From positions 1 to 43,576 of the IMG/VR virus record IMGVR_UViG_3300045988_004347: a DNA stretch of 43,576 nucleotides; one strand, written 5' to 3'. Every line of letters begins with the position of its first letter. Position 1 is the first letter of the stretch. This document shows positions 1,016-43,576 of this stretch, piece by piece. The stretch comes from a virus. The translations under genes and the position numbers were made by a program. The notes under the pieces are model-generated. The model saw nothing but the letters and a program-made list of their open reading frames with translations, was not told where the DNA came from and did not search any database.

Positions 1016-1819
1016 TTAATTTTTCCTGTGTACCCTTATGCACACAATTCCTGAACCACCAGAACCGCCATTCCTAGTGGAAGTAGAGCCAGGAGCATTG
1101 CCACCACCGCCACCCCCGCCCCCGGTATTGGGGGTAGCATTATTCCCCGGGCGTGAACTTGCACCACCAGCACCACCGCCGCCAGCACCGCCAGCACCGC
1201 CTATAGTTGCATAACCCACGCCGCCGCCACCACCGCCAGCATACAATTTACCAGTTACCTCTCCAAATTCTCTAGTAGTGGTACCTTGGCCAGAGCCTCC
1301 TGCTCCAATTTCGGATGTGCTACCGTTGCCCCCGTCCGTTCCCCCGTTACCAGTACTAGAACTACCAGACCTCACGCCAGCACCACCGCCAGAGCCCCCA
1401 GAACCACCATTAGGGGTTCCGGAGTTTGAATAGTTAACTCCACCGCCGCCGCCATTTACACTACTCCCAAATGCAGACGTAGTTCCGCCTGTTCTTCCAG
1501 AAGGCGCAGCCCCATCTCCTATCAATACTTCGTAACTAGTTGCTGGTCTTAGAGTTACTTTTATTGTTTTTGTATAACCACCACCGCCGCCACCGGTTCC
1601 TGTCGAAGTATTGTTTCCATAACCACCAGAGCCTCCACCCCCTACTAGGAATACATCAGCATCAAATTGCCTAAGTACAGTTAACGTGCCAGAGGACAAA
1701 AGTTCAAGCACATCATCTTCCTGCCTATAATTAGAAGCACCTGTATATGTAAATTCGAAGTAGGTGCCTCCTCCAATGCCCCCACACGCCATAAGCGGTT
1801 TACCGACAATATTGCTCAT
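1016..1819 (-). CDS. Glycine-rich tail fibre / receptor-binding-like protein, paralog 2
   Basis: The real start is MSNIVGKPLMACGG at 1819 (GGAGG RBS); the upstream part of the 386-aa ORF overlaps paralog 1. It has GGGGSGG runs and the conserved GQGTTTREFGEVTGKLYAGGG and GGSGGSGIVCIRVH motifs. Confidence 0.75.
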   Translation of the reverse strand: MSNIVGKPLMACGGIGGGTYFEFTYTGASNYRQEDDVLELLSSGTLTVLRQFDADVFLVGGGGSGGYGNNTSTGTGGGGGGYTKTIKVTLRPATSYEVLIGDGAAPSGRTGGTTSAFGSSVNGGGGGVNYSNSGTPNGGSGGSGGGAGVRSGSSSTGNGGTDGGNGSTSEIGAGGSGQGTTTREFGEVTGKLYAGGGGGGVGYATIGGAGGAGGGGAGGASSRPGNNATPNTGGGGGGGGNAPGSTSTRNGGSGGSGIVCIRVHRKN

Positions 1820-1824
1820 ATAAA

Positions 1825-1859
1825 CCTCCGTTTCTTTGTCCCGACCTCCGAAACGGAGG
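1825..1859 (-). promoter_or_regulatory. Alternative hairpins involving the RBS of paralog 2
   Basis: CCTCCGTTTC (1859-1850 in the minus sense) can pair with GAAACGGAGG (1834-1825, which contains the GGAGG RBS). It can also form a local 6-bp hairpin with 1849-1845. Confidence 0.35.
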
Positions 1860-1865
1860 CCGTGT

Positions 1866-2683
1866 TTATTCTTTGTGTACGCGCATACAGATGATGCCCG
1901 AGCCACCAGAGCCGGGGTAAGACACGTAATCCCCCGACACGACTTGCGCTGACCCGCTTCCGCCTCCGCCTCCCCCGGTATTGTCCTGGGCAGAAGTCTG
2001 CTGCTTTGCTCCACCACCTTCGCCACCGGACGCATAGGTTGTAGTTGCCGAACTCGCACCGCCAGCTCCGCCACCGGCATAAAGTTTCCCGGTGATTTCG
2101 CCAAACTCACGGGTCGTGGTGCCCTGCCCAGTTCCACCGACCTTTGAATTGATGGTAAGCGCGTCATTTCCGTCACTGGCTCCGTCGCCAGGGTTCACAC
2201 CCAAATTCGTACTTTTTGAACCGCCTACGCCTCCGCCAGAGCCTCCGTTGCCGCCGTTTATTGGAACAGACGCAGATTTTCCGCCCTCTGCCGTATAGCC
2301 AAAAGCAACTGTATTACCTCCAGCAGGGCCTACTTTTCCAAAGGCTGCTTTGCCAGCCAGAGCAATCCCACCTGCGCCAATTACAACGGAATACTCGACA
2401 TTTGCTTGAAGCAGCGCTTTTGTGATGGTCTTTGTAAAGCCGCCAGCTCCACCTCCGCCTCCAGCCCACGTCGAATTAAATCCGTTGCTGCTTCCATTTC
2501 CAGCACCTCCGCCTCCTACCAAAAAGGCGTCAATGTACGTGTCCTTCGTGACTTTCAGCACACCACTTGTCAGAAGCTCCACAACCCCGTCATCAAGGCG
2601 TTCGTTGTACGTTCCGGTGTACTCAAACTCTAACCGTTTAGCAGTACCCCCCCCGCTATTTGCGATTTACCGACAATAACCAT
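1866..2683 (-). CDS. Glycine-rich tail fibre-like protein, paralog 1, frame broken in a G8 tract
   Basis: ATG at 2683 (RBS AAGGAGG) gives MVIVGKSQIAGG, then stops after 17 codons. The -1 frame continues GGTAKRLEFEYTGTYNERLDDGVVELLTSG, colinear with the paralog 2 N-terminus. Confidence 0.7.
2647..2654. repeat. Homopolymer C8 (G8 on the coding strand) at the frame break
   Basis: Plus strand reads gtaCCCCCCCCgct. One extra G, or a -1 ribosomal slip, would restore a single ORF. Confidence 0.85.
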
Positions 2684-9487: not shown

Positions 9488-10579
9488 ATGGAAAAGATTA
9501 AACGCATAGCAATATTTATCGGTACATGGGTTGCCGCTACCTGTGTAGTTCTTATCTTGGGAGTAATTCTTGCTCCTACTTCGCCAGAGGGGGATAAAAT
9601 TCTTGGTGGCGGATTTACTGCAGCCGTTTTTATTATCCCTGTCATTATTGCTATTCTTGTTGTCAACAAAGATAAGATAAAAGCAAAGCTGCCTGAAAAG
9701 AAACCAACCGCTCTTAACCTCTCTGATACAGCAGAGCGAACAAAAGAATTTGTACCGCCCGCTTCTGCCGCAAAACAACAGCAACTCGCGGACAAGTTGG
9801 TTTCTGACATGCGCACTACTCTTTCTTTTTGCGAAGATGCCCCTTCGCTCAATTTATTTGTACATTGGTACGACCAAGCAATTGCCGATTTGGTCAAAAT
9901 GGTTTCTTTGGTTAAAGCCAATTTTAACTTTGACCCAACGTATAGGCTTAAAACTTTACGCGACGAATACCAACTCCATTTGTGTGATGCCATAGTTCGA
10001 ATCAAAGAGGAAACTTTGTCTGAAATAGACGGAAAGTATAAAAACAGCCGCGAATTTCAAGAAAAAGCCCTTACTGAATTTTGCGATGATATTGGGTTTG
10101 TTCGTTCGCGTTTTTCTCCCGGCACCGCCGATGTGGCAGATAAAGCTATTTCTGATATAGAAAAGCATCTTGGCATTAACCAGCACCCGGAAGAAACTTC
10201 TGCCCATTTATCGTTGTGGGACAACATTGATTTTATGGACGGTCATCGCTTTGAATACTGGTGTGCGGATGTCCTCCGCAAAATCGGATTTTGTAACGTA
10301 GAGGTAACACGCGGCAGCGGCGACCAGGGCGTTGACGTTCTTGCGGAAAAAGATGGGGTCAAATATGCCATCCAGTGCAAGTGCTATACTTCCGATTTGG
10401 GTAACAAGCCGGTACAAGAAGTCAACACTGGAAAGACCATTTACCGCTGTCAAGTTGGCGTTGTTATGACAAACCGTTACTTTACGCAAGGGGCAAAAGA
10501 CGCTGCTGAAGCAACCGGCATTTTGCTGTGGGATCGTGACGTCGTGCAAAAGATGGCAAAACTGGCGAATATGGCTTGA
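9488..10579 (+). CDS. Membrane-anchored protein with a C-terminal Mrr-type (PD-(D/E)XK) restriction endonuclease domain
   Basis: Start is MEKIKRIAIF after AAAGGAGGG. Two N-terminal TM helices are present. The C-terminus FEYWCADVLRKIGFCNVEVTRGSGDQGVDVLAEKDGVKYAIQCKCY...VVMTNRYFTQGAKDAA fits the Mrr_cat pattern. Two hand-counted 60-nt lines gave about 42% GC. Confidence 0.75.
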   Translation: MEKIKRIAIFIGTWVAATCVVLILGVILAPTSPEGDKILGGGFTAAVFIIPVIIAILVVNKDKIKAKLPEKKPTALNLSDTAERTKEFVPPASAAKQQQLADKLVSDMRTTLSFCEDAPSLNLFVHWYDQAIADLVKMVSLVKANFNFDPTYRLKTLRDEYQLHLCDAIVRIKEETLSEIDGKYKNSREFQEKALTEFCDDIGFVRSRFSPGTADVADKAISDIEKHLGINQHPEETSAHLSLWDNIDFMDGHRFEYWCADVLRKIGFCNVEVTRGSGDQGVDVLAEKDGVKYAIQCKCYTSDLGNKPVQEVNTGKTIYRCQVGVVMTNRYFTQGAKDAAEATGILLWDRDVVQKMAKLANMA

Positions 10580-10584
10580 CCTTT

Positions 10585-10612
10585 ACCGCCCTCTGTAGAG
10601 GGCGGTTTTTAT
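10585..10612 (+). terminator. Intrinsic terminator of the TM-Mrr gene
   Basis: 9-bp stem ACCGCCCTC/GAGGGCGGT with loop TGTA, then TTTTTATAT. It overlaps the stop of the convergent Gp15-like gene. Confidence 0.8.
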
Positions 10613-11157
10613 ATCCATCTACTGATGACCGCCTCGTCTTGCTCCGTATATTGCTTCTGGAAATCTATCAAATGCCGGTTTTTTCTATAAAACTCCTGCT
10701 CTGATTTATCCAGCTTTTCACCCTTTGACTTCTTTCGCCGTATATTGACCACTTGTGCAAACATACAATCGCCAATTTCCGTGTACGCCGTGTTCCACGT
10801 CCACCAATGAAGATAGCGCATCGCGCGGACTTCTTCCCCCAGCACTTTGTTTACAGGAGCTACAATCAATGGGAAATCCTGCTGCCAATCCATAAGCTTT
10901 ACGGTTCGCTTTTCTTCTTTGTAGGGCTCCCCGCAATTTATAAACCAAATGCATTTCTGGATAGCTTCCTCATAGTCTCGCTCCGGCATGTTATCAAAGT
11001 CTGGGTAAAAAATATCCAACATCGCTTCTGCCTTGTCGGCTTCCGTAAAATCTTTGTCAGAAATGGCTTCTATGATGGTCAGAATATCTCGGTAATCGCT
11101 CCGTATTTCATATTCCGTTCCGTTGACTTCCACGGACACCGGCAAATCATATCTCAT
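10609..11157 (-). CDS. Gp15-family phage protein in the tail module
   Basis: 182 aa. MRYDLPVSVEVNGTEYEIRSDYRDILTIIEA... is typical of the Gp15 family found between the chaperone and the tape measure in A118-like modules. Confidence 0.65.
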   Translation of the reverse strand: MRYDLPVSVEVNGTEYEIRSDYRDILTIIEAISDKDFTEADKAEAMLDIFYPDFDNMPERDYEEAIQKCIWFINCGEPYKEEKRTVKLMDWQQDFPLIVAPVNKVLGEEVRAMRYLHWWTWNTAYTEIGDCMFAQVVNIRRKKSKGEKLDKSEQEFYRKNRHLIDFQKQYTEQDEAVISRWI

Positions 11158-11588
11158 TTGTGGTACTTCTTTGTGTACTTACTGATGCGCGGATTGGTAG
11201 CTTTCTGTTCGCGGGAGAAAGTAGTGTCTACTTCGTCCATTACGGCAAGCATCAGGTTAGCCCACACAGGCAGACCGTCCGCCAGCGCGTATAGGTTCAT
11301 TTCGCCAAACAAAGCGCTGCAAATGTCAACGTGGAATACTTCATTGATGATCTCGCGCATTTCGTCATCCATCTTGCGTGCTGTATCAAAAATGTCGCGT
11401 TTATTGGCCGTCTTTTCTACTTCCGCTTTGTAAGTTTCCTGCTTTTTGTCCAGCGTATCAAAAGCGTTAAAAAGCTTTTCCACAAACCCGCTGTCCGTGG
11501 GGTTAAAAGAAAACTCACACGTCTTGCCATCGGTTGTTTCAAATACTTTTTTTACGACGCCAGAATTGATGATAATAGTGTCTGCCAT
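11154..11588 (-). CDS. Tail assembly chaperone
   Basis: 144 aa, acidic, directly after the major tail gene. ATGA overlap with the next gene. Confidence 0.6.
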   Translation of the reverse strand: MADTIIINSGVVKKVFETTDGKTCEFSFNPTDSGFVEKLFNAFDTLDKKQETYKAEVEKTANKRDIFDTARKMDDEMREIINEVFHVDICSALFGEMNLYALADGLPVWANLMLAVMDEVDTTFSREQKATNPRISKYTKKYHK

Positions 11589-11637
11589 TTTTATCCTCCA
11601 TGTGAGGGCGGGGAATGTCCCCCGCCCTCTCTGTTAT

Positions 11638-12159
11638 TTAGGCCGCAGTAAACTCAATAGCGCCGCTGCTACCTTTCTTCACAGTGCCCACAGTGCGGGT
11701 GCCGCCGTAGGTGATTTCGCTGGTGATATTCAGGGTGCCGCCGCCCTCGCCGCCGATGCCGGTGATGGCAATAGCGCAAGCGTCGTAGCGCTCCGCAAAC
11801 ATCGCCTCGCCGCTGGTGGCGTAGAAGTGACCGATCATCATGTCCTGATTTGCCAGCGCCTGGGCATCTTGGTCTTTGACGGCCAGGTTCCACATCTTCA
11901 CCGCCGCAGCGTCACCCGCGTCCAAAGGAATAGGGTCAAAGGTCTGCGTGATGGTGGGCTTTTTCATAGTCGTAAAGGTGTGGCCCAAAATGTCCTGCTT
12001 GGTGTCGGTGCTCCAATCCATTTCCTCGCTGCTGTCCTCGACGCGCTTACCGATAGCGCTCCACACAGGGGCGGAAGCGGTGCCGGTGTTCAGGTACGCA
12101 ATGAGCAGTTCGCGGTCAATGGTCTGGCCCACCGTGGTGTTGAATTCCAAATCTGCCAT
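11638..12159 (-). CDS. Major tail protein
   Basis: 173 aa. Position and the pattern LIAYLNTGTASAPVWSAIGKRVEDSSEEMDW... are typical of siphovirus major tail proteins. Confidence 0.75.
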   Translation of the reverse strand: MADLEFNTTVGQTIDRELLIAYLNTGTASAPVWSAIGKRVEDSSEEMDWSTDTKQDILGHTFTTMKKPTITQTFDPIPLDAGDAAAVKMWNLAVKDQDAQALANQDMMIGHFYATSGEAMFAERYDACAIAITGIGGEGGGTLNITSEITYGGTRTVGTVKKGSSGAIEFTAA

Positions 12160-36140: not shown

Positions 36141-36752
36141 ATGGTAAAAACATTACAGGATTTGTGCAAAGATGCAAAAGACCGACAGAATTTAACTATA
36201 CAAGATTTGTCCGACATGACGGACATTTCAGCATCAACCATAAGCAATTTTTTCTCCGCGTCATCAAAGGAGCCGAGCGTGTACAAAATGGGTTTAATTT
36301 GTGCCGCGCTTGGCGTTTCAATGGATGAATATTTCGGGATTGAAAAAGAAGTGACAACGGAAGATGAGTTAGCACAAGCCAACGAAAAGCTGGCGCACCA
36401 AAAGCAGCTGCATGATGCCAATGTGCAGATAGCCCATCTTGAGGGCGGCATGGAGCAGATGGCAAAAACCATTAACTACCACCGCAAGAAATCGCGGGAC
36501 ACAAAATTTGCTATTTATGGCCTTACGTTTTTGTGCGCCATATTTATGGCTGTTATCGTGGGATATATCTTTTTTGACTACCGTATCCCCCACCAGGGGC
36601 TTATTCAGGGCGGAGAGGCCAGTATATTCGCATGGATTGTCTTTTTGCTGCTTGCGGTCGGTATTGGCTTTTTTGCCGCTATTTTGATGATGTATTTTCG
36701 CTATGCAAAAAAGTATACATTGTCGCCAGATAAGGGAGGAGATAAACAATGA
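36141..36752 (+). CDS. XRE-type HTH protein with a coiled coil and two C-terminal TM helices
   Basis: 203 aa with the HTH LTIQDLSDMTDISASTISNFFS. The TM helices are FAIYGLTFLCAIFMAVIVGYIFF and IFAWIVFLLLAVGIGFFAAILMM. The stop overlaps the int ATG (ATGA). Confidence 0.7.
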   Translation: MVKTLQDLCKDAKDRQNLTIQDLSDMTDISASTISNFFSASSKEPSVYKMGLICAALGVSMDEYFGIEKEVTTEDELAQANEKLAHQKQLHDANVQIAHLEGGMEQMAKTINYHRKKSRDTKFAIYGLTFLCAIFMAVIVGYIFFDYRIPHQGLIQGGEASIFAWIVFLLLAVGIGFFAAILMMYFRYAKKYTLSPDKGGDKQ

Positions 36753-38071
36753 ATGTAGTATTGCGGGCAGCATTATACCCGCGTGTGTCCACGGAAGAAC
36801 AGAAAAAGTTTGGCTTGTCTATTCACGATCAGCAGAACGACCTCGAAGAATACGCCAAAGCCCACAATATGAAGGTGGTAGGCGTTTTCCAGGATGCCGG
36901 GTTTTCCGCCAGAAAGAAGATTGAAAAGCGTCCCGCCATGCTTCAACTGCTGGAAGCCGTCAAGCGTGATGAGGTAGACATTATTCTTGTCACAAAGCTG
37001 GACCGGTGGTTTCGCAACATCGGCGAGTATTACAAAGTGCAGGAAATCCTTGAAGCCCACAACGTGTCGTGGAAAACGATTTATGAGGACTACGACACGT
37101 CTACAGCCGCAGGCCGGTTGAAGATTAACATTATGCTTTCCGTAGCACAGGACGAAGCTGACCGCGCCAGTGAACGCATAAAAAAAGTGCTTGATGCAAA
37201 AAAAGATCGAAATGAGGTTTGCACCGGTCATCTGCCGAAAGGATACAAAATTGAAGGGAAATTTGCTGTTATAGACAAAGAGGCAGAACCGATTATACGG
37301 AGATACTTCTCTACATTTTTGGAAACCGGCTCCATAACAAAAGCGATGGACGCAGTACCGGAATTAAAACTTAAATACCAAACAGCCAGCCAAATGTTGG
37401 ACAACACAGGATACACGGGAGACTGGCACGGGATAAAATTACCCCCGTATTTAACACCGCAGGAATTTCAGCGTGTGCAAGACTTACGCACGAGGGTGAC
37501 GCGAAAATCCCCTTACAATCGAACGTATATTTTCTCGGGGCTAATAGTCTGCGGGGAATGCGGACGCAGAATGACAGGGCATCCGTCTCCACGCCCAAGC
37601 GGGGCGTGCTCTTACTCTTACTATTGTCAAGGGTCTGCCCAGAGAAAAGGATGCAACAACGGTAATTTTACTGTCGAATGGAAAATCGAAGATTATCTCT
37701 TGTCGACAATAGACGAGCAGATACAGATCAAATTGCAAGCCAAGCCGCGGCAAGAACCCAAAGCAAACAAAGATGTGCAATTAAAGGCTTTACAAAAAAA
37801 ACTATCCAAGTTGTCAGAGTTATATATAGACGACATGATTTCAAAGGCGGACTACTCAAAAAAGTATGCAGAACTGACATCACAAATGGATGAGATTACA
37901 CAGGTAAAATCACAAAGCCGCGCACCAGAAGAAATTGCAACCTTATTTTCCGCAGGATGGCAAGAAATATACAAACAACTTAACAAAGAAAATAAACAAG
38001 CATTTTGGAAACTCAAAATAAAAGAAATCCGGCTATACAAAGACCGCCGGATTGAATTTGATTTTCTGTAA
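36749..38071 (+). CDS. int: Large serine recombinase (integrase)
   Basis: 440 aa. The resolvase-type N-terminus is AALYPRVSTEEQ, followed by ...VTKLDRWFRN, a recombinase domain, the zinc ribbon CGECGRRMTG...C and a coiled-coil C-terminus. Confidence 0.9.
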   Translation: MNVVLRAALYPRVSTEEQKKFGLSIHDQQNDLEEYAKAHNMKVVGVFQDAGFSARKKIEKRPAMLQLLEAVKRDEVDIILVTKLDRWFRNIGEYYKVQEILEAHNVSWKTIYEDYDTSTAAGRLKINIMLSVAQDEADRASERIKKVLDAKKDRNEVCTGHLPKGYKIEGKFAVIDKEAEPIIRRYFSTFLETGSITKAMDAVPELKLKYQTASQMLDNTGYTGDWHGIKLPPYLTPQEFQRVQDLRTRVTRKSPYNRTYIFSGLIVCGECGRRMTGHPSPRPSGACSYSYYCQGSAQRKGCNNGNFTVEWKIEDYLLSTIDEQIQIKLQAKPRQEPKANKDVQLKALQKKLSKLSELYIDDMISKADYSKKYAELTSQMDEITQVKSQSRAPEEIATLFSAGWQEIYKQLNKENKQAFWKLKIKEIRLYKDRRIEFDFL

Positions 38072-38072
38072 T

Positions 38073-38114
38073 TACTTAGTTTATATAACCCGTTAGGTTG
38101 CATAAAACTAAGTA
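38073..38114. other. Candidate attP: imperfect dyad directly after int
   Basis: TACTTAGTTT(at) ... AACC-CGTTA-GGTT ... AAACTAAGTA. The 10-bp outer arms are perfect inverted repeats around an inner dyad. No T-run follows, so it is not a simple terminator. Confidence 0.35.
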
Positions 38115-38125
38115 CACAAGAATAT

Positions 38126-38147
38126 CCCCCGCCAAAACAGGCGGGGG
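38126..38147. terminator. Hairpin between the convergent int gene and the accessory operon
   Basis: 8-bp stem CCCCCGCC/GGCGGGGG with loop AAAACA. Both flanks are only weakly T-rich. Confidence 0.5.
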
Positions 38148-38152
38148 ATACT

Positions 38153-38467
38153 TTATCCTCGCATCTTTCGCATCACGTTATCATACATTCGCGCGTTGGT
38201 CACTTTCAGCGCATCCATCAACTCGTCCACTATGGCCCACGCCTGTTCCGGCGCGCGGGATGATACCGCTTGCATGAAGTCACTGTCACCGTCTACCACA
38301 TCAGGAGCCGGTGCGCTGGAATACATAGCCATTGGTGCAGGGTTTCTCTGCCCTTCGTGCTGGTTTTGTATAATGTACAGCGCGGCCAACTTCTCGTAGT
38401 TCGGCCAGCTTGACTGTTCCGTTTCCAGTCTGGCTATCCAGGCTTTAAGTTCCTTTTCGTCGATCAA
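38153..38467 (-). CDS. Accessory operon gene 8, hypothetical (104 aa)
   Basis: TTG start after GAGGGGG. Sequence includes ...SDFMQAVSSRAPEQAWAIVDELMDALKVTNARMYDNVMRKM. Confidence 0.6.
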   Translation of the reverse strand: MIDEKELKAWIARLETEQSSWPNYEKLAALYIIQNQHEGQRNPAPMAMYSSAPAPDVVDGDSDFMQAVSSRAPEQAWAIVDELMDALKVTNARMYDNVMRKMRG

Positions 38468-38483
38468 GGGGAACTACCCCCTC

Positions 38484-38900
38484 TCAGCCCTCCACGGCAT
38501 CCATACACCGCTGAATGGCGTTGCGGATGGTATCATCATCCGCATTGTCCAGCATCTCTTGCAGCTGGCGCTTCATGTCATCTTTTGCGCCGTCGCGGCT
38601 ATAATGACCGCGCACATAATGGGTGCCACGTCGTGCGTAGGAGCTGCCGCCGCCGTAGCTGTCGCGGGAATACCTGCGCTGGGAATAGTCGCCGTCGCGG
38701 GAGTAACGCCGCTGGGAATAATCGCCGTCACGGCTGTACCCTTCATCTTCCATCAGATCGATTTTGTCGATGTTCTTGATGGTGCTTACCAGCTTATGCG
38801 CGATGTCCAAATCCCCGGCGCCCAGCTCTCCTTTGTGGGCGATCTCGTCAAGCTCCTTGCACAGCATATCGCGCAAATCGTACATTGCTTTCATACTCAT
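38484..38900 (-). CDS. Accessory operon gene 7, R/S/Y-repeat protein (138 aa)
   Basis: AAAGGAG RBS. The helical ends flank the low-complexity core GYSRDGDYSQRRYSRDGDYSQRRYSRDSYGGGSSYARRGTHYVRGHYSRDG. Confidence 0.7.
   Translation of the reverse strand: MSMKAMYDLRDMLCKELDEIAHKGELGAGDLDIAHKLVSTIKNIDKIDLMEDEGYSRDGDYSQRRYSRDGDYSQRRYSRDSYGGGSSYARRGTHYVRGHYSRDGAKDDMKRQLQEMLDNADDDTIRNAIQRCMDAVEG
38661..38726. repeat. 2 x 33-bp imperfect tandem repeat
   Basis: gtcgcgggaatacctgcgctgggaatagtcgcc / gtcgcgggagtaacgccgctgggaataatcgcc, encoding RDGDYSQRRYS twice. Confidence 0.8.
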
Positions 38901-38912
38901 AGTTTACTCCTT

Positions 38913-39344
38913 TCAGCTTACGCGGTCAACGGTCAAGTTGGAGTTAACGAAATTGATTGCCTGTGTGCTGGTGTTCTCCATAGCCACAGTCAGGCAACAG
39001 CCCTTCGGCACCTCCACAATGGCGCTGACATAAATGTTGAAATAGTTTTCCACGGCGGCGGGGGTAACAGTCGCCACGGCACTGGTCAGCGGTTCCCCAT
39101 TGATAGCCAGCGCGGCGGTAATAGCTTCCACCGTGCCACCGGTAGGGATAGCGATGTTGCCGCCAAAAGCTACGCGAAAACGTGCCTTGCACTGGTTTGT
39201 CAACCCGCGCAAAGTTACGATGCCTGCTCCGGCTCGATGCACGATGCACGGTTTGTTGTTGACCGCAGTTTCCGTCAGGGGAACGTTCTGCCCAGCAGCA
39301 ACGGTCTGAATTGCCGCAGAAGTAAATTCTGCCATTAAAATCAT
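38913..39344 (-). CDS. Accessory operon gene 6, beta-rich protein (possibly BclA/C1q-like fold)
   Basis: 143-aa ORF. The likelier start is MAEFTS at 39335. The pattern AIQTVAAGQNVPL...GIVTLRG...FRVAFGGNIA...ALAINGEPL...CLTVAMENTS...NLTVDRV resembles exosporium BclA C-terminal-type domains. This was judged by eye only. Confidence 0.65.
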   Translation of the reverse strand: MILMAEFTSAAIQTVAAGQNVPLTETAVNNKPCIVHRAGAGIVTLRGLTNQCKARFRVAFGGNIAIPTGGTVEAITAALAINGEPLTSAVATVTPAAVENYFNIYVSAIVEVPKGCCLTVAMENTSTQAINFVNSNLTVDRVS

Positions 39345-39354
39345 TCCTTTCTCA

Positions 39355-39388
39355 GTTAAAATAAGCGGCGGAGCTATTGCCCCGCCGC
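39355..39388 (-). terminator. Intrinsic terminator inside the accessory operon
   Basis: 7-bp stem GCGGCGG/CCGCCGC, then TTATTTTAAC on the minus strand. It is preceded by the GTTCGGAAATTCCGAAC palindrome. Confidence 0.55.
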
Positions 39389-39455
39389 GTTGGTGTCAGT
39401 ATCAGCACGGGGCTGAACAGTTCGGAAATTCCGAACAGCTGGTGCTATGCAGTTG

Positions 39456-40175
39456 TCAGCAGCCGCAGCAGCCGGTATAACTGCCGCTTGCCCACGGGTT
39501 GCAGGACGGGTAACTGGGAATGGGCGTGGGCCGCAGCTGGGAGATCAGGTAGTTGTTCTGCGCAGCCTGAGAAGCGGCAAGGCGCAGCTCCTGATTGGCA
39601 CTTTCCAGATCGCGCATCTTGCTCTGCGTCAGGAAGTCAAGGATAGCGCGACTATTCTGGTTCTGGTTGTCGATGATGTCACGCGCAGCGGTGTTGACCG
39701 TGTTGCGGGTATCGCAAGCCTGCGTCGCCATATCGTACCGCACCTGGGCGATAGCCGCCCGGTTCTCGCAGCAGCACTCCTGGTTCTGCATCTGCATGGC
39801 GTTGAGCTGCTGCATGAGCGCCGCCTGCTGGTTGCTGCGGGAAAGCTCGGCCTGTGCAAAGCCGTTTGCCATCGCCATGTTGGTGCCGTTGACAAGCTGC
39901 GCCTGCTGGTAAAATCCGTCGCAAAGGCCCTGATTTACGCTGTCGATCTTGCGCTCGACATTGGCAAAGTCAGAGGTCAGAACATAACCGTCCATCACGC
40001 CGTTGCCGCCGCCACCGAAGCCAAAGCCGTTACCCCAGCCGCCGAACGCAGCGAAAATGAGGAACAGCACGATCCACCACGCGCCATCGCCGCCCCAGCC
40101 GAAGCCGTTACCGTTGCTGGTGTTGGCAGGAGCCACAGGCATAGTCATCATGGGGGTGCCATCGGAAAGAGACAT
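39456..40175 (-). CDS. Accessory operon gene 5, Gly/aromatic-rich single-TM protein with a Q/N coiled coil and Cys-rich tail
   Basis: 239 aa with an AAAGGAG RBS. Features are NGNGFGWGGDGAWWIVLFLIFAAFGGWGNGFGFGGGGNG, ECCCENR, and the C-terminus CNPWASGSYTGCCGC. Confidence 0.7.
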   Translation of the reverse strand: MSLSDGTPMMTMPVAPANTSNGNGFGWGGDGAWWIVLFLIFAAFGGWGNGFGFGGGGNGVMDGYVLTSDFANVERKIDSVNQGLCDGFYQQAQLVNGTNMAMANGFAQAELSRSNQQAALMQQLNAMQMQNQECCCENRAAIAQVRYDMATQACDTRNTVNTAARDIIDNQNQNSRAILDFLTQSKMRDLESANQELRLAASQAAQNNYLISQLRPTPIPSYPSCNPWASGSYTGCCGC

Positions 40176-40228
40176 AGTATCACTCCTTTTGAAAATTTTT
40201 TATATCAAACCGTGGCCACGATTTTGAT

Positions 40229-40450
40229 TTACTTGAAAAGCCCCTGAAATTGGTTTGCCATTGACTGTATCTTGTTCAACTGGTCTTGTGAAATCCTGCC
40301 GCTTTGCAGCATCTTTCCCACTTCCGCTTTTGGGTCGCCTTTAAAACTTGCCTTGAACTGCTTGAACTGCTGTAAAAGCTGGGGAAATCCGCTCATCGAC
40401 CCCGGCATCTGTCCGCCGCCCAACGCATTGAAAAACGGATTGTTACTCAT
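40229..40450 (-). CDS. Accessory operon gene 4, Q-rich small protein (73 aa)
   Basis: Its start overlaps the upstream stop (ATGAGTAA). Sequence includes FPQLLQQFKQFKASFKGDPKAEVGKMLQSGRISQDQLNKIQSMANQF. Confidence 0.6.
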   Translation of the reverse strand: MSNNPFFNALGGGQMPGSMSGFPQLLQQFKQFKASFKGDPKAEVGKMLQSGRISQDQLNKIQSMANQFQGLFK

Positions 40451-40883
40451 CGTCCTCTTCCTCCTCCGCCTTGCGCTTCTTCTTGCCCTTTATTTCGCCA
40501 ACAAGCGCCGCCAGCGCGTCGAACTCCTTACGGGTCACATATTCCGTGGAGGGAGCTTTCTGCGCGTCAGGAGCACTTGCAAGGCGTTCCACAAGGTCAT
40601 ACGTCTTGAGCGTCGGCTTGCCGCTTGCATCAGCCTGTTTCAAGTAAACTACGGGAGCCGTGCTGTCCCACAGCGCAATAGCAGAGTTGGGCGCAATCAG
40701 CCAATTCTCCGCCTCCGGCCTACCAGCTACCCACTGTACGCCGCCCTGCGCCACCGGGTTTTGCATGGGTGGAATTTGCGGTATCTGTGGCGGCATGGTC
40801 TGCATCTGCTGCTGCCGAAGCTGGGCAAGGTTGTCCTGCATTGTCTGCGGGTAATAAGGGTTGAAATACGGGTTAAATGCCAT
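40443..40883 (-). CDS. Accessory operon gene 3, Q/P-rich N-terminus and acidic-basic tail (146 aa)
   Basis: MAFNPYFNPYYPQTMQDNLAQLRQQQMQTMPPQIPQIPPMQNP... then a folded core ...WLIAPNSAIALWDSTAPVVYLKQADASGKP... and the tail KKKRKAEEEEDDE. Confidence 0.65.
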   Translation of the reverse strand: MAFNPYFNPYYPQTMQDNLAQLRQQQMQTMPPQIPQIPPMQNPVAQGGVQWVAGRPEAENWLIAPNSAIALWDSTAPVVYLKQADASGKPTLKTYDLVERLASAPDAQKAPSTEYVTRKEFDALAALVGEIKGKKKRKAEEEEDDE

Positions 40884-40885
40884 AG

Positions 40886-41269
40886 TTACGCCTCACTTTC
40901 TTTTTGCCAGTAATACAAAACAATTTCGTTTTCGCTGTTCCAGCTGTCGTAAATTACGCCGTCCTGAACACACACGACGTGCCCGGATAGCGCAAGGATA
41001 AACGTCCCCTCCGGGTGTTCATCGGCGAACCTACCGACTGTGTAGCAATCCGGGCAAGTATCCGGCACCATGTACCGCCTGTAGCCTATCCGCCGAAGAT
41101 ACGCACCCCACACAGCGTTTGCGGATGGCATATCACCTTCCAGATACCCCTCTATTGCCATAGCAAGGTACGTTTCGCCCCACTCTTTCCCGGTGGCTTT
41201 TGAAATAGCCCGAACGGTGCAGTCTCCCACATTTTTCCCGTGTGGGTTTTCGTTGAAGTAGCTATACAT
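40886..41269 (-). CDS. Accessory operon gene 2, possible papain-fold thiol enzyme (127 aa)
   Basis: A candidate Cys/His/Asp triad is spaced as in papain-like folds: NVGDCTVRAIS, LSGHVVCVQDG and VIYDSWNS. Confidence 0.65.
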   Translation of the reverse strand: MYSYFNENPHGKNVGDCTVRAISKATGKEWGETYLAMAIEGYLEGDMPSANAVWGAYLRRIGYRRYMVPDTCPDCYTVGRFADEHPEGTFILALSGHVVCVQDGVIYDSWNSENEIVLYYWQKESEA

Positions 41270-41393
41270 GAGCTGCCACCAGCTCTATCACCCGCACATA
41301 GGCTTTTAGCCCCGGGAGGTCATCCTGATACGCCCAAATGATGTCCTCCGCCATCTGCTGGGTAAATCCCAACGACACCAACTTTTCGACCAT
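41262..41393 (-). CDS. Accessory operon gene 1, small protein (43 aa)
   Basis: Start is MVEKLVSLGFTQQMAEDIIWAY at 41393 (ACGGAGGTG RBS). The upstream part of the 60-aa ORF covers the terminator. It has an 8-nt overlap with gene 2. Confidence 0.5.
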   Translation of the reverse strand: MVEKLVSLGFTQQMAEDIIWAYQDDLPGLKAYVRVIELVAAHV

Positions 41394-41424
41394 GCAAGCA
41401 CCTCCGTTTCTTGCAATAAGCGTA

Positions 41425-41452
41425 ACAAAAAACTGCCCCCGCAAAGGGGCAG
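41425..41452 (-). terminator. Intrinsic terminator ~30 nt upstream of the accessory operon start
   Basis: 7-bp stem CTGCCCC/GGGGCAG with a 6-nt loop, then TTTTTTG on the minus strand. Confidence 0.75.
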
Positions 41453-41493
41453 TTAAAGGTCAGAAAAAGGCCGTTAATTTGCGAAATATTTAC

Positions 41494-41644
41494 TTGTACA
41501 ATACCGCAGAAACGATGTATAATAAAATCAGCCGCCCCGGAATACTCCCGGCGGGCATCTTTCCCTTTTTATACGCCCGGTTCACCCCCCCTACCGGGCG
41601 CAAACAAAGAAGCCGCACCTTTTCAGGTGCGGCTTCTTTCTTCG
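41494..41644 (+). ncRNA. Candidate ~115-nt sRNA, shown as promoter through terminator
   Basis: TTGTAC, an 18-nt spacer, then TATAAT with TG immediately upstream (41494-41523). The perfect 8-bp hairpin CGCCCGGT/ACCGGGCG follows. The terminator has an 11-bp stem GAAGCCGCACC/GGTGCGGCTTC plus TTTCTTC and overlaps the stop of the 80-aa gene. Confidence 0.45.
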
Positions 41645-41865
41645 TCTGCAAATTTCTGATACGCTCTCCTGCGGCACCGCTTTACCGTTTCCGGTGACAC
41701 GTTTAGCAGTAACGCCGTTTCACAATAGCTTTTCCGCTTCACGTCACATTCAATAACGCACACTGCTTCGTCAGGCGGTAGCTGGGCGCTCATAACATAC
41801 GCAATAGCCCGCTTTGGTGCCATACTCTGCAATCTGCGCCGTATCTGCTTGTGGTAGCTGTCCAT
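41623..41865 (-). CDS. Sigma-70 region-4-like HTH protein (80 aa)
   Basis: YCETALLLNVSPETVKRCRRRAYQKF is a region 4.2/LuxR-type HTH. No clear Shine-Dalgarno sequence is present. Confidence 0.6.
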   Translation of the reverse strand: MDSYHKQIRRRLQSMAPKRAIAYVMSAQLPPDEAVCVIECDVKRKSYCETALLLNVSPETVKRCRRRAYQKFADEERSRT

Positions 41866-41952: not shown

Positions 41953-43212
41953 TTACTTCACGATCTCCCACGTGCCGCTTTTCCCGTCCGCGCTCCGCGT
42001 CACCTTCACGGTGTACGTTTCGGTCACGGTCGGCTGTTCCGGTGTCTCCGGCTGTTCCGGCTCCTGCGGCTTCTCCGGCTCCACATATTCCAGCCCGCAG
42101 AACTCGCACAGCGCCTTGCAGTCCGCCACAGCGCAATCCTCCATGTGCTCGTGGAACCACGCCGCGTCCTCCGGGTTGTCGTGGTACACGTGCTCCTGGT
42201 ACACGGCGTAGGCGTTCGTGTCGTCCAGCTCGTGCAGGTCGCTCCGCGTCGCCGTCCGGCAGCCGTGGGGGTAGATGGCCTTGCGGTACTTCACCATCAG
42301 CTCTGCCAGTTTCTTCCCGTTGGCGCTGCTGGGGTGGTACATGGACAAAAAGCCCTTTACCGTGCCGTGCCCGGTGGGGCCGTTGGTGCTGCCGTTGGTG
42401 TGGGACACATAGTGCACCTTTGCGCCCCACTGATTGCTCTCCTTGATGGCGCGGTACATATAGTCCGGGCCGTACTCGTCGCTCATGGGCGTCCGGCGTG
42501 GGCCGCGCATGATGTCAAAGCCGCAGCGTTCCAGCATGGGCTGCAAAATGTCCAGAAACTCGTTGTTCTCCAGCGTCTCATAGCACTGCTGGCCATCGGG
42601 ACGCTTATAGCAGCACTGGTTGGCCATGTGGTACGCCGGGGACAGATAGATCTTCGGCTTCTCCGCAGGCGCGTCCTCGTCGCTCTCCTGATAATCCGGG
42701 TAGCCGAAGGTGTACGAGGACTTTACGCTGGCGTACTCCTTCTCGTACACGCCGCCGCCGTTGCTCACCACGCCGCTCTGTGGGCTGGTGTTGCCCTCAA
42801 TGGTGCGGAAGCCCTTGCCCACGATCTCCGTCACGATGCCCGTGTGGTCATCGCCGAAGAATACCTGTGCGCCCACCTTCGGCGTAGTGCCCAGCTGCCC
42901 CGCAGCCTTGAAGTACCGCTTCAGGTAGTACACGCCCGCGCCCAGACTGTCGTCCGGCAGGTTCTGCAGCCGCTTCGCCTCTGCTACGCCGAACGCCTGC
43001 ACGTTCACCCACGCCACGAACGTGGTGCACCACGGGTACCCCTGCTTTTTCCCGTTGTAGAAATGGGGGATGGCGTCAATGTCCCGTGCGTACTTCGTAA
43101 AGTTCTTGTCCCCTGCGTTAGCGGTCTTGCTGTCCAGCTGCGCGTTGGACGCTTTCTCAAGATAGCCCAGCTCCTCCCGGGCTATCTTGATGACTTTACT
43201 GCCGCCGTTCAT
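41953..43212 (-). CDS. Endolysin: N-terminal CHAP domain plus N-acetylmuramoyl-L-alanine amidase-like domain
   Basis: 419 aa. The CHAP Cys is in GYPWCTTFVAW and the His in GDDHTGIVTEI. A central amidase-like region follows (KIYLSPAYH...VHYVSHTNG...). The C-terminus has a PE-rich linker and a small beta domain. Confidence 0.85.
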   Translation of the reverse strand: MNGGSKVIKIAREELGYLEKASNAQLDSKTANAGDKNFTKYARDIDAIPHFYNGKKQGYPWCTTFVAWVNVQAFGVAEAKRLQNLPDDSLGAGVYYLKRYFKAAGQLGTTPKVGAQVFFGDDHTGIVTEIVGKGFRTIEGNTSPQSGVVSNGGGVYEKEYASVKSSYTFGYPDYQESDEDAPAEKPKIYLSPAYHMANQCCYKRPDGQQCYETLENNEFLDILQPMLERCGFDIMRGPRRTPMSDEYGPDYMYRAIKESNQWGAKVHYVSHTNGSTNGPTGHGTVKGFLSMYHPSSANGKKLAELMVKYRKAIYPHGCRTATRSDLHELDDTNAYAVYQEHVYHDNPEDAAWFHEHMEDCAVADCKALCEFCGLEYVEPEKPQEPEQPETPEQPTVTETYTVKVTRSADGKSGTWEIVK

Positions 43213-43435: not shown

Positions 43436-43576
43436 GTCCTTTCCGGCTTTACGCCTCTCGCTTGATGGGCAGCTTCCTTACTTCCTCCATGACCCGTTTT
43501 GCGCTGCCGTTGCCGCCCATCTTTTCATACGGCTGGTACAGATAGTCATTGAGGTTTTCGTACTCGTCCTGCGTGA
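43436..43576. repeat. Terminal direct repeat copy 2, identical to 1..141
   Basis: Same 141 nt as the window start. It duplicates the 3' part of the 14..322 gene. Confidence 0.9.

Follow-up and report, generated by a model that had tools for sequence, protein, structure and literature searches.

A block of eight tightly packed genes, P1 to P8, lies on the minus strand near one end of IMG/VR virus record IMGVR_UViG_3300045988_004347 (the window, meaning the whole stretch of 43,576 nucleotides analyzed here; Table 1). Seven of these genes, P2 to P8, form one conserved, self-contained accessory cassette of tailed phages that infect gut and rumen Clostridia. In the window's lineage, the cassette additionally carries P1 and, upstream, a gene encoding a sigma-70 region-4 protein (the sigma-r4 gene). 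We file the block as an accessory cassette of the phage late operon that stands outside the virion core, the holin-endolysin pair, and named defense systems. An original prediction, made from the sequence by itself, had described an accessory operon of unassignable proteins between the lysis genes and attP/int and had read it as a prophage-expressed envelope or spore-surface assembly, or an exclusion system, rather than as virion genes.

All eight open reading frames (ORFs) were found where that prediction had placed them. Its 8-nt start/stop overlaps were seen for the pairs P1/P2 and P3/P4, and every sequence motif it had quoted was located in the encoded proteins. A longer ORF for P1 (TTG start, to 41444) extends into a terminator, and the start of P6 at its fourth codon (M4, 39335) is supported by the family consensus, the spacing of the ribosome-binding site (RBS), and an independent gene call. 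Measured against a 90%-identical relative, the ratio of nonsynonymous to synonymous substitution rates (dN/dS) was 0.00 to 0.31 per gene for all eight, including the 43-aa P1 (0.06) and P8 (0.21); because these values are uniformly low, the genes are real and under purifying selection. PHROG families matched six of the eight proteins (P2 to P7, at 1e-16 to 1e-58), and all of these families are annotated "unknown function." No Pfam, NCBIfam, or PADLOC match was obtained for P1 to P8 (PADLOC with nine proteins, at E up to 1), and profile searches against PDB sequences with P2, P3, P5, and P6 returned noise only. The absence of any named structural, lysis, or defense family, as claimed originally, was thus borne out. 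Rfam showed neither a riboswitch nor a leader RNA in or before the cassette, giving terminator-like sub-threshold matches only, and no description of this module turned up in the searchable literature.

The genes are colinear in dozens of loci and are not independent ORFs, and the expectation that they would recur as a block held. We searched 88 loci, comprising 8 phage records and 80 genome contigs found by the P6 pattern, with iterated hidden Markov models (HMMs). The order P2-P3-P4-P5-P6-P7(-P8) was kept in at least 50 of the 88, with P6 identity as low as 36%. HMMs detected P6 in 85 loci, P5 in 82, P7 in 73, P3 in 71, P2 in 59, P4 in 57, and P8 in 25; many loci are cut short by contig edges, and the co-occurrence figures are conditional on the presence of P6 because the 80 genome loci were picked through it. 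P1 was found in only about 5 loci, and both it and the sigma-r4 gene are restricted to close relatives of the window.

The cassette recurs in phages of many sources. By tblastn, adjacent P5 and P6 homologues were present in many gut phage contigs and in Butyrivibrio phage Ceridwen, and the same pair was found in lemur and rodent fecal phages (Dulem and bajarodcaudo viruses). Hosts, as judged by the names of metagenome-assembled genomes (MAGs) and hence resting on MAG binning, include Oscillospiraceae, Lachnospiraceae, Acutalibacteraceae, Ruminococcus, and similar groups. Ceridwen, which is without an integrase and has been observed in lytic growth only, holds P2 to P8 complete. Cultured Vescimonas fastidiosa MM35 carries a prophage with the sigma-r4 gene and P1 to P8 at its extreme end, and the sole match in a plasmid collection was a prophage within an 861-kb Vescimonas replicon. 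Searches with P2, P5, and P6 each gave at least about 8,000 matches (database clustered at 90% identity), and P6 amounts to 901 clusters at 50% identity. These families are very large and their members all nameless; a function for the cassette would annotate thousands of gut-virome genes. The whole cassette is at hand in two cultured systems, Ceridwen with Butyrivibrio fibrisolvens DSM 3071 and the V. fastidiosa MM35 prophage, and a reduced version is held by Clostridium perfringens phages.

In the window, a Dp-1 holin and a CHAP+Amidase_3 endolysin lie upstream of the cassette and a serine recombinase downstream, in agreement with the position first described. What had been called the classic lysogenic-conversion position is, however, just one of at least four placements. 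Placement A, downstream of the endolysin, was seen in at least 21 of the 61 loci with enough upstream sequence; a convergent recombinase of the tyrosine or serine type often comes next, as it does in the window. In placement B (11 to 15 loci and Dulem virus 35), the cassette sits within the head module, between the Phage_min_cap2 and scaffold genes, which adjoin each other in the window itself. Placement C, among early genes, occurs in C. perfringens phage CPD1 and Dulem virus 39, and placement D in Dulem virus 36, where the cassette directly follows the receptor-binding protein gene and the holin and autolysin are 16 kb away. The window carries a GP20-b RNA motif (RF03003; 15498-15557, minus strand; 55.8 bits versus a gathering score of 36.2) between its Phage_min_cap2 and scaffold genes, in the very gap that receives the cassette in other phages.

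The cassette is also dispensable and moves independently of its neighbors. In MT835520, a lysin gene 91% identical in nucleotide sequence to that of the window is followed immediately by the integrase, and the cassette is absent; this contig, together with the differing genome positions, upholds the accessory nature of the block. Near-identical cassettes (P5 100% identical) occur beside different holins and lysins, so the cassette is not tied to lysin type. Between placement B loci and the window, identity is 64-66% for P6 and 42-58% for P2, compared with 27-32% for the Phage_min_cap2 protein and 22-26% for the portal, and for the major capsid protein (MCP) it is undetectable. Because P6 and P2 are conserved where the capsid genes have diverged, the cassette does not co-diverge with virion genes, and capsid decoration was judged unlikely on that ground. 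A role as a replacement for the lysis genes was rejected, since a holin and a lysin of its own were found in each phage inspected. A fixed block of six to eight genes that phages have carried from place to place intact must have a task requiring every part. No current phage-function category accounts for it, and its function could point to a hitherto undescribed step, late or directed at the envelope, by which phages infect Gram-positive anaerobes. Elsewhere, a C5 DNA methylase gene or GIY-YIG or NUMOD homing endonuclease genes have been inserted at the P5|P6 or P4|P5 junction (C5 methylase, L019 5825-6940; GIY-YIG, L076 3547-4128; NUMOD, L053 5834-6478; annotated endonuclease, L002 7410-7961; L numbers denote loci). 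Weak, sub-threshold PAPS-reductase-like and radical-SAM-like matches were found at the same junctions, and none of these insertions informs function. The methylase and PAPS-reductase-like genes lie at the P5|P6 junction, the site of the internal hairpin in the window.

P5 (PHROG 16490 at 1e-41) is the hallmark protein and the only hydrophobic product of the cassette (KD(15) 2.13). It consists of a short acidic N-terminal tail, one transmembrane (TM) helix with Gly/aromatic flanks, a Q/N-rich coiled coil, and a Cys-rich C terminus. In an alignment of 28 sequences, a CCC motif was invariant and ASQxAQ, PxP, and a terminal CxC nearly so; the single-TM protein with a coiled coil and Cys clusters that had been described at the outset is present as such, and one of its clusters is a family-wide feature. 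Averaged over the P5 family, Lys plus Arg comes to 0.44 for the 40 residues that precede the TM helix and 1.58 for the 40 that follow, with about 11 cysteines C-terminal to the helix. Cysteine is generally scarce in exported proteins of Firmicutes. An N-out/C-in orientation is weakly favored because of this charge bias and the position of the cysteines, and the Cys-rich coiled coil thus probably faces the cytoplasm. Such an orientation agrees with the lack of signal peptides in all other products of the cassette. P5 resembles Rz-type i-spanins in its N-terminal TM helix, long coiled coil, conserved cysteines, and usual site downstream of the endolysin, and its homologue in a crAss-like phage likewise lies near lysis genes. 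However, the cassette has no lipobox, signal peptide, or lipoprotein partner, P5 shows no similarity to Pfam spanins, and its coiled coil is suggested to be cytoplasmic, the reverse of the spanin orientation; moreover, the hosts are monoderm Clostridia, unlike the diderm hosts of spanin systems. P5 thus fails the defining features of spanins.

Structure prediction and fold searches (AF2 monomer models) covered P2 and P6. P6 matched PHROG 20016 at 1e-58 and is the most conserved protein of the cassette. Its model, built from a 60-sequence alignment, is all-beta with a pLDDT of 91, and Foldseek against the PDB matched it to the C-terminal domain (CTD) of F-BclA, to ExsFA, BxpB, and BclA, and to EDA and C1q, with a probability of 1.00, E values of 5e-8 to 1e-5, and TM scores of 0.7-0.77. 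The BclA/C1q-type resemblance proposed for the beta-rich protein is therefore reproduced at the level of the predicted fold. Identity to the structural matches is just 10-13%, no Pfam or NCBIfam match was found, and the PDB-sequence profile gave noise only, so that P6, as modeled, is a fold-level relative of the BclA/ExsFA/C1q proteins and not a member of their sequence family. Foldseek also matched P6 to the phi812 spike knob, a cyanophage fiber domain, and tail fibers in BFVD, where its nearest neighbors are stand-alone proteins of 130-145 aa from uncultured gut phages (TM score up to 0.85). Fusion of P6 to a stalk or fiber was seen in 0 of the best 150 of the 901 clusters. P6 shares the jelly-roll fold and approximate size of Bacillus ExsFA/BxpB and of the CTDs of BclA and F-BclA (E values of 5e-8 to 4e-6, TM scores of 0.67-0.77 for these proteins). 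A 2011 paper on the isopeptide attachment of BclA to BxpB carries a retraction mark and was left out of account. Like ExsFA/BxpB, and unlike BclA or a phage fiber tip, it stands alone without a stalk or signal peptide. It differs from the exosporium TNF-like proteins in its low identity to them, its lack of a Pfam match, its phage origin, and its occurrence with non-sporulating hosts; unlike them, it always adjoins a Cys-rich membrane protein.

P2 (PHROG 3754 at 1e-36) is a putative peptidase or amidase with a papain-like layout and no family of its own. D16, C17, H97, and D108 were invariant in alignments of 15 and 60 sequences, and in the predicted model (pLDDT 94) Cys17 sits at the N terminus of a helix, with His97 and Asp108 on neighboring strands. 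Of the papain-fold enzyme proposed originally, the invariant Asp-Cys...His...Asp set in papain-like geometry was supported, whereas the fold had no significant neighbor in the PDB by Foldseek; the best match was Josephin-2 (E value of 0.18, TM score of 0.48), followed at lower rank by other weak neighbors among deubiquitinase-type and toxin-type Cys proteases. In its predicted layout, P2 resembles clan CA-like peptidases (Josephin, C39, and NlpC/P60) in the arrangement of a Cys-bearing helix and His/Asp-bearing strands, and some depositors name its homologues "putative peptidase," but it has no Pfam or NCBIfam match and, at 127 aa, is smaller than most members of that clan. Relatives of P2 unaccompanied by the other cassette genes were found in Tsamsa-like Bacillus phages, Geobacillus phage GBK2, Lak megaphages, and Pseudomonas phages. 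In the two such records inspected, they are early genes, lying by an Ocr-like gene and a kinase gene in Bacillus phage Izhevsk and before RecE/RecT in GBK2.

The remaining products are small and either helical or of low complexity. P1 gave sub-threshold Pfam matches to UBA and DUF3173 only. P3 (PHROG 21718 at 1e-30) has a homologue in C. perfringens phage CPD1 (hhalign 99%), and P4 (PHROG 22984 at 1e-22) is always found in the order P3-P4-P5. P7 (PHROG 28802 at 1e-16) contains the R/S/Y repeat noted earlier (2 x RDGDYSQRRYS), but the repeat region is not conserved and its flanks are. P8, always the last gene, has a C-terminal motif, DELM..L.V.NPRLY..VMRKL, and a homologue in CPD1 (hhalign 98.9%).

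Divergent versions of the module were found in more distant phages. In crAss-like phage cr116_1, gp022 (annotated "spike protein/glycoprotein") is a true P5 homologue (HMM E value of 7e-36) that shares with P5 the Gly/aromatic-flanked TM helix, CCC, ASQxAQ, PxPAY, and the Cys-rich C terminus; it lies between the lysis and scaffold/MCP genes, and a small, Cys-containing, beta-rich protein is encoded after it. Reduced modules in C. perfringens phages, bajarodcaudo virus 5, and Dulem virus 36 consist of P3, a P4-like protein, and P5, with P8 also present in CPD1. The P6 position of these modules is taken by a separate Cys-rich family of 125-139 aa (L006 7376-7753, L007 7734-8153, and L008 7597-7980) with an N-terminal C..C/CGGC, an invariant ADQxRSR, and 7 cysteines. 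This family had no Pfam or PDB match, and a resemblance to ENA (Bacillus endospore appendage) subunits is conjectural. The proteins at the P6 position in CPD1, bajarodcaudo virus 5, Dulem virus 36, and cr116_1 were considered as candidates for P6 and were rejected, as hhalign against the P6 profile gave no match. At the P7 position, the reduced modules carry another family with weak ferritin-like PDB matches (E value of about 0.2), which serves as a lead only. Small proteins with HExxH-like motifs, gp021 (HECLH) and gp026 (HEKNH), surround gp022 in cr116_1 (L089 2904-5879), and a 105-aa protein with weak metallopeptidase matches is encoded just after the module in Dulem virus 39. A small protease of some type may accompany the module.

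All four of the intrinsic terminators that had been predicted to fence the block were found as hairpins on the minus strand, at approximately the coordinates first given (Table 1). At the same position before P1 in L093, a three-sequence alignment inspected by eye showed a hairpin of other sequence followed by a T-run. Terminator-like hairpins followed the last gene in 48 of 72 loci, lay at the P5|P6 junction in 20 of 70, and stood upstream of P1/P2 in 17 of 59, compared with 23 of 440 random control windows. The hairpin at 41454-41431 abuts the P1 RBS and that at 39388-39365 the P6 RBS, and between the latter and P6 there was neither a sigma-70-type promoter nor room for one. No sigma-70-type promoter was found on the minus strand at 41393-41650, where the Escherichia coli-type consensus used could miss a Clostridial or phage-specific promoter. 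Upstream genes share the strand of the cassette in 8 of 8 annotated phage records, and the nearest upstream ORFs were co-oriented with it in 174 of 221 cases (automated calls, all loci). Because no promoter fits between the upstream terminators and P1, the proposal that the block is prophage expressed is unsupported, and the co-orientation of the upstream genes and the presence of the block in Ceridwen likewise speak against it. As evidence that a repressed prophage has no promoter for the block, this negative is weak, the promoter model being crude. Most simply, transcripts begun upstream would read through into the cassette, and the hairpins would set its dose.

On this basis, we tentatively propose, as a possible rather than a probable explanation, that a late, read-through-expressed cassette builds a membrane-anchored complex that acts on the envelope of the infected cell. 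Transcription would enter from upstream, in the window from the late operon, and the hairpins would set a dose in which P1 to P5 exceed P6 to P8. P5, the universal component, would use its one TM helix as an anchor in the cytoplasmic membrane, and the products without a signal peptide, namely a TNF-like oligomer of P6 and P3, P4, P7, and P8, would assemble on it. P2, a papain-like enzyme of minimal size, would act on a component of the complex or on a host target by processing or regulating it. The complex could then act on the membrane or envelope late in infection as a dispensable helper of lysis or release, by a logic akin to that of XepA and XhlA, which are accessory proteins in the lytic cassette of PBSX. 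In the PBSX late operon, XepA and the membrane protein XhlA are encoded beside the holin and amidase, and XepA, a beta-sandwich oligomer, has been proposed to disrupt the membrane proton motive force in support of lysis (PMC6834076). XepA/YomS and XhlA of PBSX and SPbeta share with the cassette a late-operon position near the holin and amidase and the pairing of a non-enzymatic beta-sandwich oligomer with a small membrane protein, and they are accessory to lysis through a probably membrane-directed mechanism (PMC6834076). XepA is a pentamer, whereas the TNF fold of P6 predicts a trimer; no sequence similarity between XepA/YomS and the cassette was found, and the cassette has six to eight genes and is often far from lysis genes.

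Several observations weigh against this proposal. XepA and YomS were absent from the best 50 Foldseek matches of P6, so the PBSX parallel is an analogy only. Seven genes are many for a lysis helper, the cassette is not always beside lysis genes, and about one-fifth of the nearest upstream ORFs were on the opposite strand by automated calls. The top structural matches of P6 are exosporium proteins. Relatives of P2 occur elsewhere in early host-takeover regions, which would suit a counter-defense role too. The promoter consensus, being of the E. coli type, could have overlooked a promoter proper to Clostridia or to the phage, and the orientation suggested for P5 derives from a weak charge bias and from the general depletion of cysteine in the exported proteins of Firmicutes.

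A broader form of the same idea, which we regard as doubtful, is that the cassette encodes a hitherto unrecognized, very widespread phage multiprotein machine and thus a new functional module of tailed phages. P5, as a membrane-anchored, Cys-stapled coiled coil, would bear the ExsF/BclA-like TNF-fold oligomer P6 and, together with Q/M-rich adaptors and a minimal Cys protease dedicated to it, would form an assembly built in the cytoplasm of the infected cell, whose target would be a highly conserved component of the host envelope. If true, this machine would take its place beside holin-endolysin pairs, spanins, and exclusion proteins as a system common to phages of monoderm Clostridia and present in reduced form in a crAss-like phage.

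Other explanations assign the cassette to the lysogen or to the virion. A prophage-expressed complex in the membrane of the lysogen might block the DNA entry or adsorption of other phages or alter the cell surface. Such exclusion or conversion genes frequently occupy the site before attP/attR at which the cassette is the last element in the window and its close relatives, and the presence/absence polymorphism, independent placement, and 3' terminator of the cassette are those of morons. The cassette resembles genes of this kind at the lysin-attP junction in its mobility, its dispensability, its flanking terminators, and its membrane protein P5, and the known exclusion proteins Sie2009 and HK97 gp15 are membrane anchored. 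Nevertheless, we consider exclusion or conversion unlikely: no promoter of the cassette's own was recognizable behind the upstream terminators, the block is usually co-oriented with the late genes upstream, it is complete in the integrase-free Ceridwen, it lies inside the head gene cluster in 11 to 15 loci, and PADLOC returned nothing. To our knowledge, known exclusion functions are single proteins, and morons comprise one or two genes rather than a fixed set of six to eight. Less likely still, P5 and P6 may form a virion-associated head or side fiber, with P5 as a Cys-stapled shaft and P6 as a TNF-like knob; P3, P4, P7, and P8 would be adaptors or chaperones, with P4 shielding the hydrophobic segment of P5. 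The block does stand at the end of the structural/late run or in the head module before scaffold/MCP, where the crAss-like P5 homologue is also found. It is carried by a lytic phage, TNF-like knobs are common on phage fibers, and Foldseek matched P6 to fiber and spike domains. Homing endonucleases have inserted into it at other loci, and a gut phage is known whose virion proteins are reinforced by disulfides (PMC10172136). On the other hand, P6 is 64-66% identical across phages whose capsid proteins range from undetectable similarity to 32% identity and whose hosts, by MAG names, belong to different families. Because of this conservation, P6 fits neither a capsid-binding nor a receptor-binding protein. 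The lack of stalk fusions among the best P6 clusters, the genuine TM helix of P5, the contig that has a related lysin without the block, the use of the same insertion spots by methylase-type genes, and the absence of any structural PHROG or Pfam annotation also run counter to a virion role. No virion proteome was found in the literature for any cassette-bearing phage. The early judgment that these are not virion genes is therefore in keeping with the lack of structural family matches and of co-divergence with capsid genes, and a virion role retains the small probability given it here.

Host takeover or counter-defense, in which P2 would act as a protease or deconjugase on a host factor and the other products would sequester or sense a conserved membrane component, strikes us as improbable. 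It would account for the relatives of P2 that occur alone in early regions, beside an Ocr-like anti-restriction gene and a kinase gene in Izhevsk and likewise early in GBK2, for the deubiquitinase-type and toxin-type proteases among the weak fold neighbors of P2, and for the location of the block among early genes in CPD1 and Dulem virus 39. P6 and P2 evolve slowest, which suggests a conserved host target. However, no similarity to known anti-defense or defense proteins was found, the cassette of the window ends the late gene run, and the fold matches of P2 were not significant (E values of at least 0.18). Less probable again is a spore-surface or exosporium-like assembly made in the sporulating lysogen and built into the coat or exosporium. 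The best structural matches of P6 are F-BclA, ExsFA, BxpB, and BclA; the soluble products are without signal peptides, as coat proteins are; P5, P6, and the alternative P6 family are cysteine rich; and an integrated copy abuts a GerA-family fragment and SpoIID. The cassette is, however, not confined to spore formers. It is complete in a lytic phage of B. fibrisolvens and in a Vescimonas prophage, and a true P5 homologue is encoded by a crAss-like phage. Butyrivibrio is not known to sporulate, the hosts of crAss-like phages do not, and the type strain of V. coprocola, of the same genus as V. fastidiosa, has been reported to be non-spore-forming. Identity of P6 to BclA/ExsFA is 10-13% with no Pfam BclA-type domain, the TNF fold is found just as commonly among phage and eukaryotic proteins, and no mother-cell-type promoter was identified, although the search was not a rigorous one. 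The spore-surface assembly first suggested is thus a weak explanation, even though GerA and SpoIID are both encoded by this phage's host.

Table 1. Genes and other features of the cassette region in the window (positions from the first nucleotide of the window; ".", no single strand).
Feature	Position	Strand	Description
sigma-r4 gene	41623-41865	-	80 aa; sigma-70 region-4 helix-turn-helix (HTH) alone; Pfam Sigma70_r4_2, 1.4e-9
Terminator hairpin after sigma-r4 gene	41609-41644	-	AGAAGCCGCACCTGAAAAGGTGCGGCTTCTTTGTTTG; conserved in L009
Terminator before P1	41431-41454	-	38 nt upstream of P1 start codon; 10 pairs, then T-run
P1	41262-41393	-	43 aa; ATG preceded by GGAGG; small helical protein
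P2	40886-41269	-	127 aa; minimal papain-like Cys-His-Asp protein, putative peptidase or amidase
P3	40443-40883	-	146 aa; Q/P-rich N terminus, conserved central segment, helical acidic tail
P4	40229-40450	-	73 aa; small, helical, Q/M/N-rich
P5	39456-40175	-	239 aa; hallmark protein, single TM helix and coiled coil
Internal terminator-like hairpin, P5|P6 junction	39365-39388	-	10 pairs (9 G-C), then TTATTTT
P6	38913-39335	-	140 aa from M4 (ORF to 39344, 143 aa); TNF/C1q-like jelly roll (predicted)
P7	38484-38900	-	138 aa; helical conserved ends, variable R/S/Y/G-rich middle
P8	38153-38467	-	104 aa; small helical protein with conserved C-terminal motif
Bidirectional terminator hairpin	38123-38150	.	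Between P8 and convergent integrase; scan matches on both strands and sequence
attP region	38072-38122	.	End of homology between window and integrated copies
Large serine recombinase (integrase)	36749-38071	+	Pfam Resolvase, 1e-31, and Zn_ribbon_recom; convergent, outside cassette

With ends that overlap by 141 nt (1-141 and 43436-43576, the first 40 nt recurring at 43436), the window represents an entire circular phage genome, about 43.4 kb in size; in ENA it is contig ERZ27260667 k141_183027. The late genes run on the minus strand from the terminase through the SPP1-type portal, Phage_min_cap2, scaffold, MCP, and tail genes and across the contig junction to the holin, the lysin, the sigma-r4 gene, and P1 to P8; gene flow across the junction, from tail fiber to holin, was confirmed in relatives L009 and L097. 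The homology of integrated copies ends within the 82 bp that separate P8 from the integrase gene (at 38087 in L097 and 38083 in L100, placing the phage-host junction at about 38083-38087), and attP is therefore located there. In L097, a 111.5-kb contig, host genes stand directly beyond the end of the integrated copy: at 9909-11878, the phage end abuts a 298-aa GerA-family fragment, whose ORF continues into the phage end, followed by SpoIID. The host of this phage therefore carries sporulation and germination genes. The one junction retrieved, where a serine-recombinase phage has entered a germination gene, brings to mind the elements that interrupt sporulation genes in Bacillus.

The sigma-r4 gene lies between the endolysin gene and the cassette, has a dN/dS of 0.07, and is followed by two terminators about 150 nt apart. 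It was found in about 4-5 of some 90 loci, recurring alongside the cassette in L009, L093, L025, and L035 and accompanying all of P1 to P8 in L009 and in the Vescimonas prophage (L093). Its product may be a lineage-specific, cassette-specific regulator or read-through factor. A second candidate regulator is encoded on the plus strand at 36141-36752, in a gene that overlaps the start of the integrase gene. This 203-aa protein has an N-terminal XRE-type HTH (Pfam HTH_3) and two strongly hydrophobic C-terminal segments, and it has the look of a repressor-like regulator that is anchored in the membrane and expressed from one transcript with the integrase.

The endolysin (41953-43212, minus strand) is a mosaic. 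L099, L100, and L104 share its Amidase_3 half (about 95% nucleotide identity) without the CHAP half, and L099 and L100 pair that half with Phage_holin_5_2 rather than the Dp-1 holin. The last large tail gene before the holin (1016-2176, minus strand) encodes a Gly_rich_2 domain (Pfam 3e-17); its relatives carry one or two copies of the domain and vary in length, and the product is probably a variable receptor-binding fiber.

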